The notes under the pieces are model-generated. The model searched no databases. It had not been told where the DNA came from and was given only the letters and a program-made list of their open reading frames with translations. Both the position numbers and the translations under genes were made by a program. From assembly GCA_048885865.1 (NCBI GenBank), contig JBHLLF010000052.1, positions 1 to 15,805 on the forward strand: DNA of 15,805 bases. Reading direction: 5' to 3'. Numbering within the stretch: the stretch's first letter is position 1; each line of letters opens with the position of its first letter. This document shows, one piece after another, positions 5,373-13,027 of the stretch. The stretch comes from Candidatus Hermodarchaeota archaeon (GTDB taxonomy: Archaea; Asgardarchaeota; Thorarchaeia; Thorarchaeales; Thorarchaeaceae).

Positions 5373-6278
5373 ATCAGTCGGAAGAAATGGGGCAAGACAG
5401 CTGCAAAGACAGAAAGAGTCGTTAGAGATGCCATTCTAAAGCCAGACGTAGAGGCGAATATAGACGAGTATCTTGAGAAAGCGCGTTCTGTAACCCAGTA
5501 TGACCTTGCGAACCGATTTGGTGTTAGAATGAGTGTTGCGCGACAGATCCTCCGGCAGAAAGAATCAGATGGTGTTCTTATTCCATACATTCGAGAGGGC
5601 GGCCTTGAGGTCTACACTACACCTGCTGAATTGGAGAAGCGAGAGTCAGAAGCCCCAATAATGATTGCGGATGCACTTGAGGAAGTTGCTTCTTCTGTGC
5701 CGAAAGCTGCAGTCATCACCGAGGAAATGGATGCAGAACTAATAGCAGCATCAGCAGCAGGCAGTGTTGTAAAGCCCAGCAGGTTGGCGCGGCAGAGAAG
5801 AGAGGCCGGAGAGAAGAAGGAAGAGAAATCCAAAGCCAAACTTCCTGAAGTTATTGTTGAGCCACTAGTGGAGCCTGCTGAGGTTCCGCCTCAGCCCGCG
5901 CCTGAAACAACGCCGAAGCCAAAGGCTAAGCCAAAGAAGAAGGTCACGAAGAAGAAGGCTGAGGAAGAGGCTAAGCCAAAGAAGAAGGTCACAAAGAAGA
6001 AGGCTGAGGAAGAGGCTAAGCCAAAGAAGAAGGTCACAAAGAAGAAGGCTGAGGAAGAGGCTAAGCCAAAGAAGAAGGTCACAAAGAAGAAGGCTGAGGA
6101 AGAGGCTAAGCCGAAGAAGAAGGTCACAAAGAAGAAAGCCGAGGAGAAACCTAAGAAGTCCACCGCTAAAAAGACTGAGGCCAAATCCACAGCTAAGAAG
6201 ACTACTGCAAAGAAGACCACGAAAAAGGCGGAAGAAAAGCCTAAGGCGAAGAAGACAACGAAGAAATCAGACAAGTGA
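5373..6278 (+). CDS. rps25e: Ribosomal protein eS25 (S25e) with a long C-terminal acidic/Pro linker and Lys-rich repeat tail; non-canonical start (ATC 5373 or ATT 5367)
   Basis: The frame of ORF 5529..6278 stays open upstream to TAA at 5313-5315. It reads SRKKWGKTAAKTERVVRDAILKPDVEANIDEYLEKARSVTQYDLANRFGVRMSVARQILRQKESDGVLIPYIREGGLEVYT, matching the eS25 pattern (KKKWSK...ITP..VSERLKI..SLAR..L..L...G.I........IYT). Confidence 0.82.
   Translation: MSRKKWGKTAAKTERVVRDAILKPDVEANIDEYLEKARSVTQYDLANRFGVRMSVARQILRQKESDGVLIPYIREGGLEVYTTPAELEKRESEAPIMIADALEEVASSVPKAAVITEEMDAELIAASAAGSVVKPSRLARQRREAGEKKEEKSKAKLPEVIVEPLVEPAEVPPQPAPETTPKPKAKPKKKVTKKKAEEEAKPKKKVTKKKAEEEAKPKKKVTKKKAEEEAKPKKKVTKKKAEEEAKPKKKVTKKKAEEKPKKSTAKKTEAKSTAKKTTAKKTTKKAEEKPKAKKTTKKSDK
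5925..6146 (+). repeat. 45-bp in-frame tandem repeat, about 5 copies, encoding AKPKKKVTKKKAEEE
   Basis: Unit GCTAAGCCAAAGAAGAAGGTCACAAAGAAGAAGGCTGAGGAAGAG starts at 5925, 5970, 6015 and 6060, with a diverged, shortened fifth copy at 6105. There are no spacers. Confidence 0.97.
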
Positions 6279-6435: not shown

Positions 6436-6981
6436 CTACTTCAGACCCGCAATCTGACGATCAATCTCTTCTAGCTGGGAATCTAGCTCAGCTTCCTTGG
6501 ATTTGTAATCATCTTCTGGAATGTAGCCTCTCATGTAGTCAAATCGGAGATCTGTGAGTGACGCCTTTAATCGGTCCTTCTGCTGAAGCAGAAAATCTAG
6601 TTGGTCACTGCCCTCAGCAGCAACAGGTTCAGCAGCAGGTGCCGCAGCCGGTTCCGGAGCGGGGGCTGCCGCAGGAGTTGGCTCTGGCGTTGGCGTCGTT
6701 TCTGCTGATGGAGCGGGAGCTGGAGTGGGTTCAGCTACTGGTGCAGGTGCTGCTGGAGCAGCTGTCTTTACACTCTCCATTTCCTCCATGTTCTTTCTCA
6801 GAGTATCAATCTGATTTGCGATTTCTGTGAAGCTATCATTAATCGTTTTGTTAATTGCCGTCTTCATCTTGGCAAGGTTCTCTGCCAACTGATCGGCAAG
6901 CTTCTTAGTTTCTGCAACCTTCATAGCGTAGGTTTCAATTTCCTTCAGCTTTGTTGTTAATTCACCTATGTCAAAGGCCAT
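6436..6981 (-). CDS. Coiled-coil protein with a Pro/Ala/Glu-rich linker and a C-terminal helical hairpin (SHOCT / ESCRT-I steadiness-box / CdvA-like)
   Basis: Strong SD AGGTGA at 6993..6988 before ATG 6981. Heptad-rich N-terminal ~70 aa, an APAPAAEP-type linker, and C-terminal LTDLRFDYMRGYIPEDDYKSKEAEL. Confidence 0.75.
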   Translation of the reverse strand: MAFDIGELTTKLKEIETYAMKVAETKKLADQLAENLAKMKTAINKTINDSFTEIANQIDTLRKNMEEMESVKTAAPAAPAPVAEPTPAPAPSAETTPTPEPTPAAAPAPEPAAAPAAEPVAAEGSDQLDFLLQQKDRLKASLTDLRFDYMRGYIPEDDYKSKEAELDSQLEEIDRQIAGLK

Positions 6982-7116
6982 GAAATGTCACCTTAGTATA
7001 GCCTACTATATCGATAGTGCTAGTGCATGGTTCTTAACCTTTGCCGTGGTGGATATTCCATTTAAAGCCTAAATTCAGGCAGCTCCCCACCCATGATGGC
7101 AACTCCTGATACTTCT

Positions 7117-7968
7117 TTATGCAGCCTTGGTTTCTGCTTTCCCCTCAAGAATTGCTTTTCGAATTATCTGAATCAACCGGTCCCTATATGAAATATCAAT
7201 GGCGACCAATTCGTAGGTTGGGATGCCAAGAATCTGTCCAACTCTCTCAGGTGTCAATGCGGTAGGCAAATCTTGCTTATTGGCAATTCCAATTACCTTC
7301 GCTTCAGGAACTTCGTCCTTTACCAGAGTGACCAGTTTCTTACTTCGAAGGACATTCTCAAGAGTGCTGTCCGTGACAATCACTACAACCTGTGCATTCG
7401 CAATCATTTTCGCCCATAGAATGCTAAATCTTGACTGACCAGCCAAATCCCAGAGCACAATGTTGGCGTTCTGAACTTCTTCCGGAAGCCGCTTTATACT
7501 CACACCAATCGTCGGATCGTGAACAAGAGGAAGTGTTTCGCCTCTTAGTAGATGCAAAGTCGTTGTCTTGCCCACACCTGCGAAACCGAGAATCGCCACT
7601 TTGACCATGGTTACTGCAATTTCATCCACTTTGGCATCGAACCCATCCAAGGGCTGCTTGGCTGTGGCTAGGTTTGCAAAGTCCTTCATGAAGGTTTCAA
7701 CCATTTGGGTCATCTTGTCTTCAATCTGTACTGAATCGTCTGCTTTATCAGCAACAAAGACGAAAGTGAAGAAGTCTCTCTGAGCGAAGAATATTCGAGA
7801 AATGGCTACGTTCATAAACTCAGTCTTTCCTTCAAGATCGACACTCCTAAGGAAATGGACAAGATTCACAAGAAACTCAACCAGAGTTGCCTTTGAGTCA
7901 CTCTTAGCATATTCTTTGGAGTAGAGAACGTCTCCTTCTTGACCCAAAATATATACACTTCGAATCAA
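7117..7968 (-). CDS. Longin domain fused to an Arf-like Ras-superfamily small GTPase
   Basis: G1 GFAGVGKTT (7587..7561), G2 PTIG, G3 LWDLAGQSRF..LW, G4 ANKQDLP. The N-terminus (M)IRSVYILGQEGDVLYSKEY...FTFVFVADKADD resembles sigma/mu-adaptin and SRX longins. Likely start is TTG 7968 after GGAGTGAG; alternative GTG 7977. Confidence 0.85.
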   Translation of the reverse strand: MIRSVYILGQEGDVLYSKEYAKSDSKATLVEFLVNLVHFLRSVDLEGKTEFMNVAISRIFFAQRDFFTFVFVADKADDSVQIEDKMTQMVETFMKDFANLATAKQPLDGFDAKVDEIAVTMVKVAILGFAGVGKTTTLHLLRGETLPLVHDPTIGVSIKRLPEEVQNANIVLWDLAGQSRFSILWAKMIANAQVVVIVTDSTLENVLRSKKLVTLVKDEVPEAKVIGIANKQDLPTALTPERVGQILGIPTYELVAIDISYRDRLIQIIRKAILEGKAETKAA

Positions 7969-7969
7969 C

Positions 7970-9073
7970 TTACTCACTCCAAGTCTGCACAAGAAGCTCC
8001 AAATATCTTCTTGCGGTATCTGAACCAAGCTTTTTCTCTTCAATCTTTGTTGCGACTATCGGAAGAATATACTCCGGCATGAAAATTTCCATCTTTGGAT
8101 TGGTTATTAGTGCCCAAACTCCTTCTTCCTCGAAATTTGCAACAATTCTTTCCGCTTCCATGGCCCACAATGCCTTCTGAACAACTTCATCAGGGAATGA
8201 AATTTCACTGGCAATTTGACCAAGGCGAAGTGGCCCATTTCTTAGGCAGTCTAGAACTGCGTAGTTGATGCTATTTGCCATAATTCTCGCAATTTTCTCT
8301 CTATCTTCTAGAATTGGCGAATTGGGATCAGTGACCGGCAAAGTGGGATTATAGCCCTTCGTTGGTGGATCAGGAGAAAAGAATTTCTTCAGATACTCTT
8401 GATACTGGGGCATTAAGTTAGGATGAGCAACACTAGTAGCATTGAATGACTTAATAGGCGGAGATCTGTGTGGGAACACATCTTTCAACAGAAAAGCTGT
8501 TTCCAACTTGCCGATGATTTCCACCGCGACGATTCCTGAATCCATCAGGGGCGTAATAGCTTCCCTCAAATCCACATTTTCACTCTGAATTTGATTCTTC
8601 AGCCACATGGACAGTTTGGCAGTACTCTCAACACCCTCCGAGTGGAGCCTTTCCAAAAGAAGGGCTGAGGAAGGTGTCATGTAAATAGCGGCCGCTTTTT
8701 GCTCGTCATCGACAACGGGCATGGAGCTTTTCTTAGCCAAGACTTCTTCAATATCTAATGATTCTGGATCCGCAATCATGAGTTCCAGCATGAATCTGCC
8801 CATACCTTTGAGTTCATGCGAGATATCCTCCAGAACATCATCTTCGTTTAGTACATAGCACACTGTCCAGCCTGGAAATGTCTCCATTGCAAAGGAAGCA
8901 ATTCGCATCCCTTCAATCTCAGAATCTCTGATTTCCTCTTCTTTTCCTTGCTGATGCTCAAAATAGACTAGATTGAGCATGGTTTCCGTCAATGCAAGAG
9001 AAGAGGGATGACGCTTCTTTACAAGGAAACCATGAAAATCATCTAATTGAATGATGAAGGCGGCTTCTGGCAT
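7970..9073 (-). CDS. Hypothetical protein with a putative uDENN/longin-like N-terminus and two winged-helix-like segments
   Basis: 367-aa ORF abutting the GTPase start. N-terminal AAFIIQLDDFHGFLVKKRHP resembles the uDENN/longin F..FD...GP.....YP start. wHTH-like segments are LLLERLHSEG...PLMDSGIV and YAVLDCLRNGPLRLGQIASEISFPDEVVQKALWAMEAERIV. Confidence 0.7.
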   Translation of the reverse strand: MPEAAFIIQLDDFHGFLVKKRHPSSLALTETMLNLVYFEHQQGKEEEIRDSEIEGMRIASFAMETFPGWTVCYVLNEDDVLEDISHELKGMGRFMLELMIADPESLDIEEVLAKKSSMPVVDDEQKAAAIYMTPSSALLLERLHSEGVESTAKLSMWLKNQIQSENVDLREAITPLMDSGIVAVEIIGKLETAFLLKDVFPHRSPPIKSFNATSVAHPNLMPQYQEYLKKFFSPDPPTKGYNPTLPVTDPNSPILEDREKIARIMANSINYAVLDCLRNGPLRLGQIASEISFPDEVVQKALWAMEAERIVANFEEEGVWALITNPKMEIFMPEYILPIVATKIEEKKLGSDTARRYLELLVQTWSE

Positions 9074-9139
9074 TTGTCGTTCCCATCTCGGAGAGACAAT
9101 TATTGCATAAAAGAATGACCATTATGTATTCCTCAAGCC

Positions 9140-9487
9140 CTATTCTAAATGCTCAATGCACTGGATGTTTCCATTTTCATCCAGAATCCAGCAATTCTCG
9201 CATACAGAAATCCCACAGATTGCGCATATTCCGATATGATGATTCAGTCCTTCAAACTTGCAGTCGCTACCTTTCACTGAATGGACATCACAGTACATGC
9301 TACCGCAACGATTGCACGACAGAATAGCATCATTTCTACATAGCACACATGATGATTTTATCTCAGCCTGAGTGAGTTCGCCCTCTCGTGCATAGCCTGG
9401 GCAGGTTTTAACTTCACAATATCCTATTCCTTTGTAACTGCCGCAATGAGTACAGTAGGGGTCAAGGACAGGTTTGTTTCTCTTCAT
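9140..9487 (-). CDS. Small multi-zinc-finger protein (B-box/AN1-like Cys/His spacing)
   Basis: From ATG 9487: 115 aa with 15 Cys, including CTHC, CEVKTC, CVLC, CNRC....CDVH, CAIC....CENC and CIEH. Confidence 0.72.
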   Translation of the reverse strand: MKRNKPVLDPYCTHCGSYKGIGYCEVKTCPGYAREGELTQAEIKSSCVLCRNDAILSCNRCGSMYCDVHSVKGSDCKFEGLNHHIGICAICGISVCENCWILDENGNIQCIEHLE

Positions 9488-9593
9488 TGCCTTTTGGCGC
9501 TCCAATTCTTGAGAAGGCGCTCTCAAAGACTACATGATGAGGTGTTAGAAAGGATGAAAAGGATTTCTTTGCCAACGAAAGCAGTGGACCCCA

Positions 9594-11897
9594 ATGGACA
9601 TTGAGAAGGACACTCTCGTCATCCCGACAACTGCAGCCCGTAGTATCCAGTTGGCGGGAGGCCCACCAATGGAGCAGGCTATTCCTGAGGATTATGTTCT
9701 TGCATCAATGGTAATGCGCGCTCTTGAAGCCCGGAATGGGCAGGAACTTGAGTTTGTCCTTAAGACATACTATCCCATAATGGTCGTGCAGTCTTCGATA
9801 CCCAACTTCTGCTTCTTGATTGAGCTACTGGGAATTAGCTCTGGGAATTTGTTGCCCATGACTGGGATTGATATCTCAGGCATTCAGAATTGCATTGAAT
9901 CATCTGAAACCCCAAACCAACTCCAAAAGTGTATTGAAGATACACACGACCTAGTTGCCTCCCTGATGAAGAGCAATGAGATGACCATTCCTGGATTGCT
10001 CTCTGGAGAGCAGGCTGATGGGATTTCAGACCTTATGGATTGGCCAATAAGTGACATTCTGGAGGAATTTGGTCTTGTTTTACCAGAGGCCATAAGCAGC
10101 AAAGAAGTGTCTCGCTTGTTTGACACATTATATGAAACCTCCAGTGTCATTGGTTCGGCAGTTGATCTTCTCTCAAATCTGCTGGATATGATTCATCAGA
10201 GAATCATGAATATTGTTGGTGAGAGCAGATCAGAGTCATCTCATAAGACTAGCAGATTGAAGCAACGAATAGAGTTCTTGAAAAGAGAACTCGAGATGCT
10301 CGATTCTCGTTTGGAACAAAGGCGCGATGCCGCGGAATTGATGCGTGAAAGAAAAGCAAGAGCTGATGCGCTAAAGAGGGATGAGGCACGGCTTGAGGAA
10401 TTGCTTGGACGCACTCGCAACACCTCAGAGAAGCTGCTGGAACAAGAAGAGCTTCTGCGCAATGAGATTAACACAATGAGCTCAGCGATTCGAAAGCAAA
10501 GGGAGCTGCTCGATAATTACCTTGTACCACTGAGAGGGATTGAAATTCAGGACAAATCGTCACTTCTTCTAATTCCCTTCGTCATGGCTGGTTTTTCTAA
10601 GAAGGGACGCCTGAAAATCGTGGCATATCCACCTTCTCGACTAGAGGATGAGCGACAAAAAGTGGGGCGCTTGCGGGAATTTGCTGATGTCTTCGTACCC
10701 TCATCAGATGCGATAAGTTCCATAGCAAGCATAATCACCAGTCGTGCAAACAGAGATGTGACCCTGAGGAAACATATCCGAGAACTCTCAAAGGAGATGA
10801 GTCTTCTAGCTTCAAAACATGCACGCAAGTTGCTCCGAGAAGGGACTCAAGCTCTTGTAGCAGATGGCTTAATCAAAAGGTCAATGATGCAGGAGCTGGA
10901 CTCAATTCTCGATGGGATTCCTGAGCAAAGTATCAAACCCAGGAGAGTGAAAAGGTCCAAAGTCTTCCCTGCTGGAGACGCCGCTTGCAGGGTTAGATTC
11001 CATGTTTATGACGATTCAGGAAATCCAGTGCCTGGAGCTACTCTTGAGTTGGGTGCTTTTACTGCGAGTTCTGATTCTAAGGGGGTGATAAAAGCCTCCC
11101 TTCCCAAGAGCAATTATGAGGGACGAGTTAGTGCCAAAGGATACCGTGAGCGCCAGTTGGAGTTCACGCTCAATACGCCAGGAAACATCGTCGTTCCCAT
11201 AGTACTTAGCCCGCTTTCAAAGGAAGAGAAACTGGATAAAGAGCTGGATGTCCTCATTGATCGTGCAAACAGAATTGAACGTATTCGGGAACGGCTCGGG
11301 GAGGCATTCGAGAAACAAGGGACTACACTTCTCAAAATTCCAGCATACAGAAGTGCTCTGGTCGAATTGCTATCTGAGCTAGGATATGATGCGGAAGCTT
11401 GGATTGCTCAGGCAAGGACAAAACGAGGTATGGTCAAAGGTTTCCTCAAACGAGACGATCGAATTCATGGTGTGAGAAGAGACATTCTACGACTTGCTGA
11501 GGAGTCTAGGGATTCTGGTGGAGTGATGCTCTTCTCCGAACTGCTATTGCGTCTTGATAATATGGGGTGGGCGACTAGTTCAGATGAAGCGGAAGGCATT
11601 ATCAGGGATATGTCCAAGGAAGGTCTCATTGAAGGGCTTTCTACACTCGAGAGCGGAGCAGTGATTGTGAAATTCATTCCAGTTGCTTTGACTGATGACC
11701 CTCAGCAGCTAATGAGTCTCGCAGCAGAAAGCGACGGAAGTCTGACTATTGAGGCAGCGATTGTGAAGCTTGGTTGGACTGAAGAGCGTGTCAAGAACGC
11801 ATTGGATCTGCTTGTCGAAGAGGGTATCGCCAAGATGCAAAGGAGCTATTCGAAGAGTACACAATATTGGTTCCCGGGGCTTCGGGGAAAGAAATAA
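9594..11897 (+). CDS. Large fusion protein: alpha/beta domain with coiled-coil insert, carboxypeptidase-regulatory-like (Ig/transthyretin-like) domain, and C-terminal ESCRT-II Vps22/Vps36 (EAP30)-like domain
   Basis: The C-terminal ~220 aa follow the Vps22/Snf8 pattern: YRSALVELLSELGYD, SGGVMLFSEL, IVKFIPVALTDDPQQLMSLA, LGWTEERVKNALDLLVEEG, YWFPGL. The beta-sandwich motif VYDDSGNPVPGATL...SDSKG...VSAKGY lies at about 10984-11213 and a coiled coil at about 10170-10520. Confidence 0.8.
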   Translation: MDIEKDTLVIPTTAARSIQLAGGPPMEQAIPEDYVLASMVMRALEARNGQELEFVLKTYYPIMVVQSSIPNFCFLIELLGISSGNLLPMTGIDISGIQNCIESSETPNQLQKCIEDTHDLVASLMKSNEMTIPGLLSGEQADGISDLMDWPISDILEEFGLVLPEAISSKEVSRLFDTLYETSSVIGSAVDLLSNLLDMIHQRIMNIVGESRSESSHKTSRLKQRIEFLKRELEMLDSRLEQRRDAAELMRERKARADALKRDEARLEELLGRTRNTSEKLLEQEELLRNEINTMSSAIRKQRELLDNYLVPLRGIEIQDKSSLLLIPFVMAGFSKKGRLKIVAYPPSRLEDERQKVGRLREFADVFVPSSDAISSIASIITSRANRDVTLRKHIRELSKEMSLLASKHARKLLREGTQALVADGLIKRSMMQELDSILDGIPEQSIKPRRVKRSKVFPAGDAACRVRFHVYDDSGNPVPGATLELGAFTASSDSKGVIKASLPKSNYEGRVSAKGYRERQLEFTLNTPGNIVVPIVLSPLSKEEKLDKELDVLIDRANRIERIRERLGEAFEKQGTTLLKIPAYRSALVELLSELGYDAEAWIAQARTKRGMVKGFLKRDDRIHGVRRDILRLAEESRDSGGVMLFSELLLRLDNMGWATSSDEAEGIIRDMSKEGLIEGLSTLESGAVIVKFIPVALTDDPQQLMSLAAESDGSLTIEAAIVKLGWTEERVKNALDLLVEEGIAKMQRSYSKSTQYWFPGLRGKK

Positions 11898-11936: not shown

Positions 11937-12725
11937 ATGAACCGTTTGTCGCATATGATATTTGCATTTTCTCTTTTTGTAGGAATGTACACGCTAATCT
12001 ATGCCTTCAGTGTCTGGCTGGCAGGATCCGGCCTTCTCTTTGATCTGCTATTCTACTACATTGCAGGTGGCATAGTTCTCACTATTCTTGCCGTGCCAAT
12101 CCTGTTCTTCAAAGCTCCAAACAAAGACATGGCCAACCGAACAAGCAGCAATCGTGGCGCTGTGGGGGCGATGTCATTCATGACATTCTGCATTGGTTCG
12201 CTTTGCGGAGCTGTTTATTATCAGTGGACCTCGGGAATTCTCTTCATTGGAGATATCTCTATTTTCATAGGCGCCGTGATAACGATGTCAGGCGCACTCA
12301 TGCCAGACTGGGACATCCCATTTCTAGGAATAGCACGACACAGAAACATCATTTTCCATTCCATAATTCTACCGCTCCTCATTGTCTTGATGACGCTAGT
12401 CAATGTCGCGCAAAGCATTGTTTCTTCATACTCGTTGAGTATCGGGGCTCACACGGAATACTACATCACCGCCCTCTTCCTGATTGGATATGCTTCACAT
12501 CTCTACCTGGATATCTTTCCAAGTGACGCTAATCCATTGGAGATAATTTGGCGTTCGGTAGATGTTACTAGCAATGCTCCAACTGGATTGAGACCCTTCG
12601 GCCCTATTAAAATCTCAAAGAATAACGCTCGAATGTGGCTAGTGGGAAATGCAACCCTGCTAGTGCTCATTGCGTTAGGCTTGCTGGGACTCTACTTCTA
12701 CAACCTGATACTGGTAGCACCGTAG
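11937..12725 (+). CDS. Polytopic membrane-bound metal-dependent hydrolase (YdjM/DUF457-like)
   Basis: Multiple TM helices with the family motifs N-terminal H, GALMPDWD, HRNIIFHS and GYASHLYLD. SD GAGGAG lies upstream. Confidence 0.8.
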   Translation: MNRLSHMIFAFSLFVGMYTLIYAFSVWLAGSGLLFDLLFYYIAGGIVLTILAVPILFFKAPNKDMANRTSSNRGAVGAMSFMTFCIGSLCGAVYYQWTSGILFIGDISIFIGAVITMSGALMPDWDIPFLGIARHRNIIFHSIILPLLIVLMTLVNVAQSIVSSYSLSIGAHTEYYITALFLIGYASHLYLDIFPSDANPLEIIWRSVDVTSNAPTGLRPFGPIKISKNNARMWLVGNATLLVLIALGLLGLYFYNLILVAP

Positions 12726-12727
12726 GA

Positions 12728-13027
12728 CTAGTCCCAATCGTCGTCGTCATCGAGGAATTCATCCTCATCTTCGAGTTCGCGCTCAGGAGGCAAATCGCTA
12801 TCGTCGTCAAAATCTTCTTCATCGTCATCCTCAAATAGAAATGTGTCAGGGTCGACTTCATCTTCTAAAACCTCAAGATCATCGGTCCGTTTTGCTTTCT
12901 TCTTGAGATGGCCTGCCATACATAGATTGTCCAAGGGGTCGTAATGTTCGCATTCTGGGCAACATTCCCCTTTATGATCGCAGGTATAGAATGCCCCGCA
13001 TATCTTGCAACACTTCAGTTCCGACAC
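12728..13027 (-). CDS. Small Cys-rich protein with a highly acidic C-terminal tail ending DDDDDWD
   Basis: 8 Cys in the first 36 aa (CCKIC, C, CCPEC, C), a basic KKKAKR patch, then an Asp/Glu-rich tail. It fills the gap between the converging hydrolase and the divergent gltX. Confidence 0.7.
   Translation of the reverse strand: MSELKCCKICGAFYTCDHKGECCPECEHYDPLDNLCMAGHLKKKAKRTDDLEVLEDEVDPDTFLFEDDDEEDFDDDSDLPPERELEDEDEFLDDDDDWD

Follow-up and report, generated by a model that had tools for sequence, protein, structure and literature searches.

A longin-Arf GTPase cassette and a long Vps22 paralogue as neighbouring units in Thorarchaeaceae

Asgard archaeal genomes encode dozens of small GTPases together with many longin and roadblock proteins, and it can rarely be told which regulator is paired with which GTPase. 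Among the described systems, GATOR1 contains the NPRL2-NPRL3 pair (Npr2-Npr3 in the yeast SEACIT complex), which works on RagA/Gtr1, while C9orf72-SMCR8 (CSW) and FLCN-FNIP are longin-longin GTPase-activating protein (GAP) platforms on Arf or Rag GTPases. A W33-D34...G38-P39 signature in C9orf72 has been tied to GAP-type longins in a recent study that also raises the question of which GTPases, Arf-related or of the Rag type, are the partners of GAP-like Asgard longins (PMC12290439, 2025). Longin/roadblock-GTPase architectures have been reported in Asgard archaea, and in MK-D1 the GTPase genes generally do not share operons with genes for roadblock or longin proteins (Tran et al., 2024, PMC10933270); most Thor metagenome-assembled genomes (MAGs) are reported to encode an NPRL2-like family as well as fusions of longin and GTPase domains (Liu et al., bioRxiv 10.1101/2020.10.19.343400). 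The window analysed here, which is the entire 15.8-kb contig (15,805 nucleotides; contig C52 of genome G000) from a Thorarchaeota MAG with 87% completeness, holds six genes named A to F below. [quoted passage not shown] The first-pass annotation of this DNA had tentatively joined A to E in one membrane-trafficking module linking a GTPase switch to ESCRT-like scaffolds. Comparison with 400 surveyed Asgard genomes (G; families are labelled f, loci that were read L, and contigs C plus a number) suggests instead that the region probably comprises two separable units, a (D)-C-B-A operon and E, which are neighbours by descent within Thorarchaeaceae and between which cross-talk is possible.

The C-B-A cassette

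The genes for C, B and A form a conserved unit, which recurs in the same order in distant lineages and as a paralogous copy in the source genome. At five loci in families f15 and f16 (L077, L082, L087, L107 and L108), a C-like gene encoding 360-372 residues is followed by a B-like gene encoding 279-282 residues and then by a gene for a protein of 106-110 residues, with gaps of 12-35 nucleotides between them. These small proteins share the hairpin of A (LDxDFMxGKI, compared with LTDLRFDYMRGYI; hhalign probability 91%, E 1e-6). Contig C90 of the source genome carries the same order, with C-like and B-like proteins of 394 and 304 residues and then a 117-residue protein that has a similar hairpin motif. 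A C-B pair is also present on contig C20 (379 and 583 residues), and contig C8 encodes a B-like protein of 648 residues. Neither the f15/f16 cassettes nor the C20 and C90 pairs have ESCRT neighbours, and at 20 distant C-family loci no match to Vps22, Vps25, Vps4 or Snf7 lies within about 7 kb. In the window, the open reading frame of B extends from 7117 to 8043, but orthologue alignments place the conserved start further in (Table 1): all orthologues begin MIRSVYILG, with ATG or GTG at the equivalent position in other genomes, and this start leaves 1 nucleotide between the stop of C and the start of B. In the searchable literature, the longin/roadblock-GTPase fusions and NPRL2-like proteins reported from Asgard archaea are not described as being encoded together in an operon that has translational coupling and includes a hairpin protein, and no description of the C-B-A operon, or of the long Vps22 fusion next to it, was found there.

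The closest structural relatives of C are the paired longin subunits of GATOR1. The AlphaFold2 (AF2) model of C (m5ce430eb5d02, from 23 orthologues; predicted local distance difference test (pLDDT) 90, predicted template-modelling score 0.87) has a longin domain at residues 1-116 followed by winged helices at about 124-200 and 245-330, which is the architecture of NPRL2 and NPRL3, a longin followed by winged-helix-type domains. GATOR1 NPRL2/NPRL3 chains rank first in a Foldseek search with the whole chain (E 3.6e-4), and the longin domain is likewise matched best by NPRL2 (8fw5_B; Z 10.3, root-mean-square deviation 2.8 and 115 residues aligned, by VIA). Other VIA matches are a Loki roadblock-longin protein (Z 10.2), the SEA-complex Npr subunit (Z 9.4) and DENND1A (Z 9.1). 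A further likeness to GATOR1 is that C is encoded together with a small GTPase bearing a putative domain of the longin/roadblock class. The differences are nevertheless considerable. C has no Pfam NPR2/NPR3 match at E<=1, so that membership of these families is not borne out at the sequence level, no DEPDC5 is known in the Thorarchaeal system, and B is Arf-like with a putative N-terminal longin, whereas Rag has a C-terminal roadblock domain.

A second comparison is with the GAP-type longins. Members of the C family, whose profile matches 288 of the 400 genomes, often in multiple copies, carry a conserved WD-x3-G[ATV] at the beta1-beta2 junction, with a spacing identical to that of the C9orf72 signature. 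The C90 paralogue has the full WD-x3-GP, whereas the subfamily found in the window has LD-x3-GF, with L in place of W and F in place of P: G15 is invariant at the position of the GP motif, which is incomplete because the next residue is F. R57, at the beta3-beta4 turn, is found in this subfamily only, and other members have Asn there. In contrast to the C9orf72 and FLCN pairs, C also has two winged helices after the longin and no DENN module. These winged helices give Z scores of 7.6-9.3 to ArsR/SmtB and MarR regulators (9.3 for an ArsR-type winged helix, by VIA), and a search of the PDB with the C-family profile returned weak winged-helix matches only. C is acidic (isoelectric point (pI) 4.7), as is its second winged helix (pI 4.4), and the 'recognition' helix DEVVQKALWAMEA has one basic and three acidic residues, which makes the winged helices more likely to bind protein than DNA.

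The G domain of B is clearly Arf-like. It matches Pfam Arf at 3e-19 (69.6 bits against a cut-off of 22.3), the family profile finds Arl1/Arf1 in the PDB at 1e-15, and all family members share the motifs GVGKT, PTIG, WDLAGQ and NKQD without change. The longin-like nature of the N-terminus (residues 1 to about 118) is drawn from weaker evidence, namely sub-threshold matches to Pfam Clat_adaptor_s (0.12) and Fuz_longin_1 (0.16) and, with the family profile against the PDB, to AP sigma (0.015-0.05) and MglB (0.16), the latter also sub-threshold and running end to end. All of these sub-threshold matches are to longin or roadblock proteins, and a full-length relative of B with 38% identity scores 27.8 bits for Fuz_longin_1, above the cut-off of 26.1; the protein atlas gave no feature matches for the N-terminus of B and contains no structure of either B or E. 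Because this domain of about 118 residues stands in place of the Arf-type N-terminal amphipathic helix, B is not a canonical Arf, and its sequence suggests that it would work like a switch of the Arf/Rag type. B is the best conserved protein of the set, with 72-88% identity across the family as against 32-48% for E, and full-length B-like GTPases (34-45% identity) are found in ten other families.

In an alignment of its orthologues the third member, A, begins with a coiled coil, continues with a linker that is rich in Pro, Ala and Glu and differs in length between proteins, and has at its C-terminus a near-invariant hairpin (LTDLRFDYMRGYIPEDEY...), the motif of which is of the SHOCT/CdvA/GvpG type. 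The CdvA-like coiled-coil family PF18822 matches 18 of 20 orthologues (best 1.7e-7) and GvpG matches 19, mostly below cut-off, and the window protein itself stays under the PF18822 cut-off (22 against 30 bits). A is not a CdvA, since PF18822 is the only such match and the N-terminus is a coiled coil with no PRC barrel. A UEV domain and a Vps28 core are likewise absent, and none of the 20 orthologues is matched by a Pfam family of ESCRT-I. There is a weak match (1.3e-4) to the C-terminus of the Znr-PH protein of the source genome. An unrelated 171-residue protein of the source genome (C35:13360-13875) has an A-type hairpin (LDLDYMRGLMSEEEY) at its N-terminus and a zinc ribbon at its C-terminus (hidden Markov model (HMM) E 5e-8). 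The hairpin can therefore be regarded as a mobile module. D, which precedes C, has several CxxC pairs and a weak ANCHR-like B-box match (0.0015).

Taken with the conserved gene order, these features suggest that the (D)-C-B-A operon encodes a self-contained small-GTPase switch. C would pair with the longin domain of B to form a longin-longin platform, which might either set the nucleotide state of B, as a GAP or a guanine-nucleotide exchange factor (GEF), or read that state out. By analogy, the working of such a platform would be comparable to that of GATOR1 with Rag, C9orf72-SMCR8 with Arf, FLCN-FNIP with Rag and MglB with MglA. A would then be a likely adaptor or effector of the C-B switch.

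The long Vps22 paralogue

Judged from its sequence and predicted fold, E is a fusion of an archaeal N-terminal module, an Ig domain and Vps22. Its AF2 model (m58f251d7cc43; pLDDT 84) has an alpha/beta region at residues 1-165, an antiparallel coiled-coil hairpin of about 140 residues at 169-307, a basic alpha/beta region at 320-445, a transthyretin-like Ig domain at 463-541 (Z 13.4 to the transthyretin-like fold, by VIA) and, at about 543-767, the helical domain and two winged helices of Vps22. This last part has the full Vps22/EAP30 arrangement of a helical N-domain and tandem winged helices, and its alignments to human SNF8 and to the Vps22 of Asgard archaea run over the full length. Profile comparison gives 9.4e-18 to human SNF8 (3cuq_A) and 4.8e-8 to yeast Vps22, Foldseek gives 9.6e-8 (2zme_A), and residues 545-766 align with the stand-alone Asgard Vps22 of about 250 residues at 30-35% identity. 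E is nearer to Vps22 than to the Vps36-like protein described below (8.5e-27 against 2e-15). It is, however, no ordinary subunit of an ESCRT locus: it is three times longer than Vps22, has a foreign N-terminal part of 540 residues made up of the 450-residue module and the Ig domain, and lies away from the canonical Snf7-Vps4-Vps25-Vps22 locus of the source genome, which is on contig C24 and encodes a Vps22 of 257 residues (C24:34880-35653) directly after Vps25 (C24:34156-34878). E is also fast-evolving, often lost and largely confined to Thorarchaeaceae and a few relatives. The long form is present in about 70 of the 85 genomes of the family, in G311, which belongs to another family of the same order, and in G001; elsewhere in the survey only residues 545-766 or so find matches, to the stand-alone Vps22 of about 250 residues. 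A weak EAP30 match on contig C12 of the source genome was rejected as a paralogue of E, being the winged helix of MCM. A 113-residue gene beside the canonical Vps22, considered as a possible hairpin protein, was likewise set aside, as it encodes a membrane protein.

The N-terminal module is of wider occurrence. When 1.84 billion representative proteins were searched with a profile of residues 1-450, 222 matches were obtained, which include the orthologues of about 770 residues and a large set of stand-alone proteins of about 530-550 residues (E 1e-24 to 1e-7) that belong to no Pfam family; the protein atlas lists the relatives as hypothetical proteins of Bathyarchaeota, Asgard archaea and Thermoproteota. 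The source genome has no stand-alone copy of the module. Foldseek and VIA searches with full-length E found no fold match for this part beyond generic coiled coil. A single-protein scan for related loci returned one Bathyarchaeota locus with an uninformative gene context. No relationship was found by hhalign between the N-terminal and middle domains of E and the longins of B and C, a comparison of low power given that it also missed the link between the longins of B and C themselves.

If E works as a unit of its own, its Vps22 module would probably dock on the canonical ESCRT system through Vps25 or Vps22. The N-terminal 450 residues, coming from a widespread archaeal family, would bring a different input, which would make E an alternative adaptor of the ESCRT-II type. 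Vps22 is reported to self-interact, and Thorarchaeota to lack ubiquitin (Hatano et al., PMC9192718).

The identities proposed for single proteins in the first-pass annotation have thus largely been upheld: B as a longin-Arf GTPase, with Arf above cut-off and the longin resting on sub-threshold matches and the 38%-identical relative; C as a uDENN/longin-wHTH protein, from the NPRL2, DENND1A and winged-helix matches of its model; A as a coiled-coil hairpin protein; D as a zinc-finger protein, from its CxxC pairs and weak B-box match; E as a Vps22-like fusion, from the SNF8 and Foldseek matches; and F as a membrane hydrolase, from its YdjM match. The structural searches recovered longin and winged-helix folds in C and the Vps22 fold in E. 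The idea of A as an ESCRT-I-like scaffold is not supported, as its only tangible motif is the SHOCT/CdvA/GvpG-type hairpin and no ESCRT-I family matches it.

One module or two units

Within Thorarchaeaceae, collinearity extends over the entire contig in about 20 genomes that represent 12 genera, from the M20 peptidase, AlaX, GlmU-like and eS25 genes through A-F to the GluRS gene and others, which means that A-E are conserved no more than their housekeeping neighbours and that synteny in the family says little about function. More telling are the genomes in which the two units have come apart. The long E is missing from six family genomes with a completeness of 95-99% (G315, G321, G323 and G387-389), all of which retain orthologues of C and B. 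At the four loci read, E is cleanly gone, leaving F next to D-C-B-A in G315 and G321 and next to C-B-A in G387 and G389. E has been lost in at least three genera that keep C-B-A, and the losses are independent, since two of these genera also include genomes in which E is present. The reverse situation is met in G001 (93% complete), which has an E-like gene and no C-family or B-like match. In G311 the set is rearranged, with C on another contig beside the GlmU-like gene. The D-E divergent pair is retained in this genome, whereas G315 and G321 keep D without E. Co-location of the five genes was not found beyond close relatives and background synteny. The comparison of gene neighbourhoods called for at first pass has therefore given a divided answer: C-B-A does recur, in f15 and f16, but the single five-gene module is not supported, given collinearity of the whole contig, repeated loss of E and a genome with E but neither C nor B.

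The strongest competitor of the two-unit reading is that of one integrated module, in which GTP-bound B, controlled by C, would recruit A and E (with D) to membranes as a GTPase-gated, non-canonical ESCRT-I/II-like pathway feeding Vps25 and ESCRT-III. Several observations weigh on its side and against two independent units. The genes have stayed adjacent in no fewer than 12 Thorarchaeaceae genera and, in part, in G311, where B-A and D-E remain less than 3 kb apart despite the rearrangement. More importantly, longin-Arf GTPases of the same broad family as B are found with ESCRT genes in two other families. The ESCRT super-locus of f28 holds one between its ESCRT-I/II genes and a gene for a 601-residue Vps36-like protein, two genes upstream of the latter and on the same strand. 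The Vps36-like protein has B-box zinc fingers, a GLUE-like region and an EAP30 match (1.8e-11), and its N-terminal zinc fingers are weakly resembled by D (E 6e-4). In f29, the sister family of f28, with genomes of 1.3-1.4 Mb, a longin-Arf GTPase lies 1.4 kb from ESCRT-III genes, in the order E2, Vps23-like, Vps28, Vps22, Vps25, Vps4, a pair of Snf7 genes, an OB-fold gene and the GTPase. With the Thorarchaeal adjacency, two lineages therefore have such a GTPase beside ESCRT-II-type genes. The hairpin of A (…RFDYMRGYIPEDEYK…) is similar to the steadiness boxes found in Vps23-like proteins of Asgard archaea (…RFEAGDITPEEYFK…), and the two give weak matches to the same part of PF18822 or SHOCT; in addition, a free-standing steadiness-box protein of Lokiarchaea binds Vps22 in a yeast two-hybrid assay (Hatano et al., PMC9192718). 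Asgard archaea also have many multidomain ESCRT-related proteins, including Vps28-C/adaptin/longin fusions, and links between ESCRT and small GTPases have been suggested (Makarova et al., PMC11188069).

Against these points stand the family-wide synteny that takes in GluRS, eS25, AlaX and GlmU-like genes, the separate fates of E and C-B-A, and the f15/f16 cassettes and source-genome C-B pairs that have no ESCRT neighbours. The likeness of the hairpins is not significant when an HMM of the A hairpin is compared with the Vps23-like steadiness boxes (E 0.1-0.8). The f28 and f29 GTPases, moreover, are not demonstrably orthologues of B. In a maximum-likelihood tree they form a clade of their own (100/99), which groups, with weak support (87/78), with f14 and the C20 and C8 paralogues rather than with B; the clade of the window B (f1 and f2; 99/99) lies apart, and the backbone is without resolution. 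Orthology with B is thus not supported by tree placement, f28 and f29 count as one event, and their GTPases are related to B and possibly paralogous to it. The link between GTPase and ESCRT proposed at first pass has accordingly gained a related GTPase beside ESCRT genes in f28 and f29, and has been weakened by the paralogous C-B pairs that have no such neighbours. An integrated module is, on this balance, unlikely.

Two further observations were made at these loci. A UbiA prenyltransferase gene neighbours the longin-Arf GTPase that lies in or near the canonical ubiquitin-ESCRT locus in both f28 and f29. In the canonical ESCRT locus of the source genome, a 523-residue protein with a double zinc ribbon is encoded beside Snf7 (C24:30572-32143); it aligns at 2e-25 with the f28 Vps36-like protein, in the zinc-finger/PH part of the latter, and is probably a member of the Znr_PH_CC_SB family of Makarova et al.

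A broader version of the ESCRT connection can be put forward with similar reserve. Longin-Arf GTPases may have been ancient regulators or recruiters of Asgard ESCRT-II-type scaffolds, in which case the Thorarchaeal and f28/f29 adjacencies would be remnants of one link and A would be a steadiness-box-type adaptor binding the Vps22 module. This proposal is doubtful at present.

It is less probable still that E belongs with a different system altogether and came to lie beside the GTPase operon by secondary rearrangement. In G311 and G001, the most distant carriers of E, the gene is followed by a conserved pair, X (about 215-235 residues, of no family) and Y (about 1140 residues, with a weak GCS2 segment, PF04107, and Ig domains of CARDB/transglutaminase-C type), at L062:10349-14490 and L063:4446-8538, respectively; the source genome also has X and Y, conserved and side by side, on another contig (C3:51064-55186, read as L070:6065-10187). 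The order E-X-Y is nevertheless found in these two genomes only, X and Y have no assigned function, and Thorarchaeaceae have kept both E and X-Y although the two are on separate contigs there. Least probable is that C is a GTPase-controlled transcription factor whose winged helices bind the D/E spacer so that the state of B regulates the neighbouring genes: the likeness to ArsR/SmtB and MarR and the building of the locus around a divergent spacer would fit, but C is acidic throughout, including the second winged helix and its recognition helix, its chain as a whole is matched best by NPRL2/NPRL3 and by scaffolds of the ESCRT-II type, in which winged helices bind protein, and C-like genes occur in many unrelated genomic contexts.

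Gene layout and significance

All six genes of the window were confirmed as open reading frames, and the inventory and orientation given at first pass, around the divergent spacer, are borne out (Table 1). The open reading frame of D runs from 9140 to 9526, and its likely start at ATG 9487 defines the length of the spacer. A scan for sigma-70-type promoters and terminators showed no enrichment and is of a kind not applicable to archaeal promoters. Gaps of 135 nucleotides between A and B and 66 between C and D were measured, and the 39 nucleotides noted earlier between the Vps22-like fusion and the membrane hydrolase were found again between E and F. As had been stated, no ESCRT-III, Vps4, Vps25 or ubiquitin gene is seen in the window.

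Table 1. Positions of the genes and spacer in the window, and of related GTPase loci in families f28 and f29
Feature	Position	Strand	Description
A	6436-6981	-	181 residues; coiled coil, linker and C-terminal helical hairpin; third gene of the C-B-A operon
B	7117-7968	-	283 residues; longin-like N-terminus and Arf-like G domain; start TTG 7968
C	7970-9073	-	367 residues; longin domain and two winged helices
D	9140-9487	-	about 115 residues; Cys-rich, B-box/zinc-ribbon-like; upstream of C, divergent from E
Spacer D/E	9488-9593		106 nucleotides, divergent intergenic
E	9594-11897	+	767 residues; Vps22 paralogue with long N-terminal part
F	11937-12725	+	262 residues; polytopic membrane protein, YdjM family
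f28/f29 GTPase loci	L094:13465-17206 (G299), L095 (G300); L097:8136-9032 (G304), L098, L109		

F just attains the gathering score of Pfam PF04307 (YdjM; 9e-7, 29.0 bits against a cut-off of 29) and by family would be a metal-dependent membrane hydrolase. It is kept in place where E has been lost and is not beside E in G311 and G001, and it may be no more than a neighbour of the two units. In G389, which lacks E, the YdjM homologue (L088:8466-9237) matches as three pieces in different frames and may be a pseudogene. Two other genes of the window have features of their own. The eS25-like gene (5529-6278) has a long Lys/Ala-rich tail made of near-identical 45-bp repeats (AKPKKKVTKKKAEEE). The minus strand at 12728-13027 encodes a small protein that is rich in Cys and has an acidic tail; its position is conserved family-wide, and its first 40-85 residues or so show 51-90% identity across the family (tblastn).

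The C-B-A cassette presents, as a genome-encoded matched set, a longin protein of NPRL2/C9orf72 shape, a longin-fused Arf-like GTPase and a putative hairpin adaptor. The natural variants of C, with WD-x3-GP, with WD-x3-G, and with LD-x3-GF plus Arg, make the family suitable for GAP and GEF assays. The long E, for its part, shows an ESCRT-II module fused to an unrelated set of archaeal domains. If an ancient link between longin-Arf GTPases and ESCRT-II-type scaffolds were true, it would be a prokaryotic precedent for the control of ESCRT recruitment by small GTPases, and would be relevant to the question of how membrane remodelling came to be coupled to GTPase signalling before the rise of eukaryotes.

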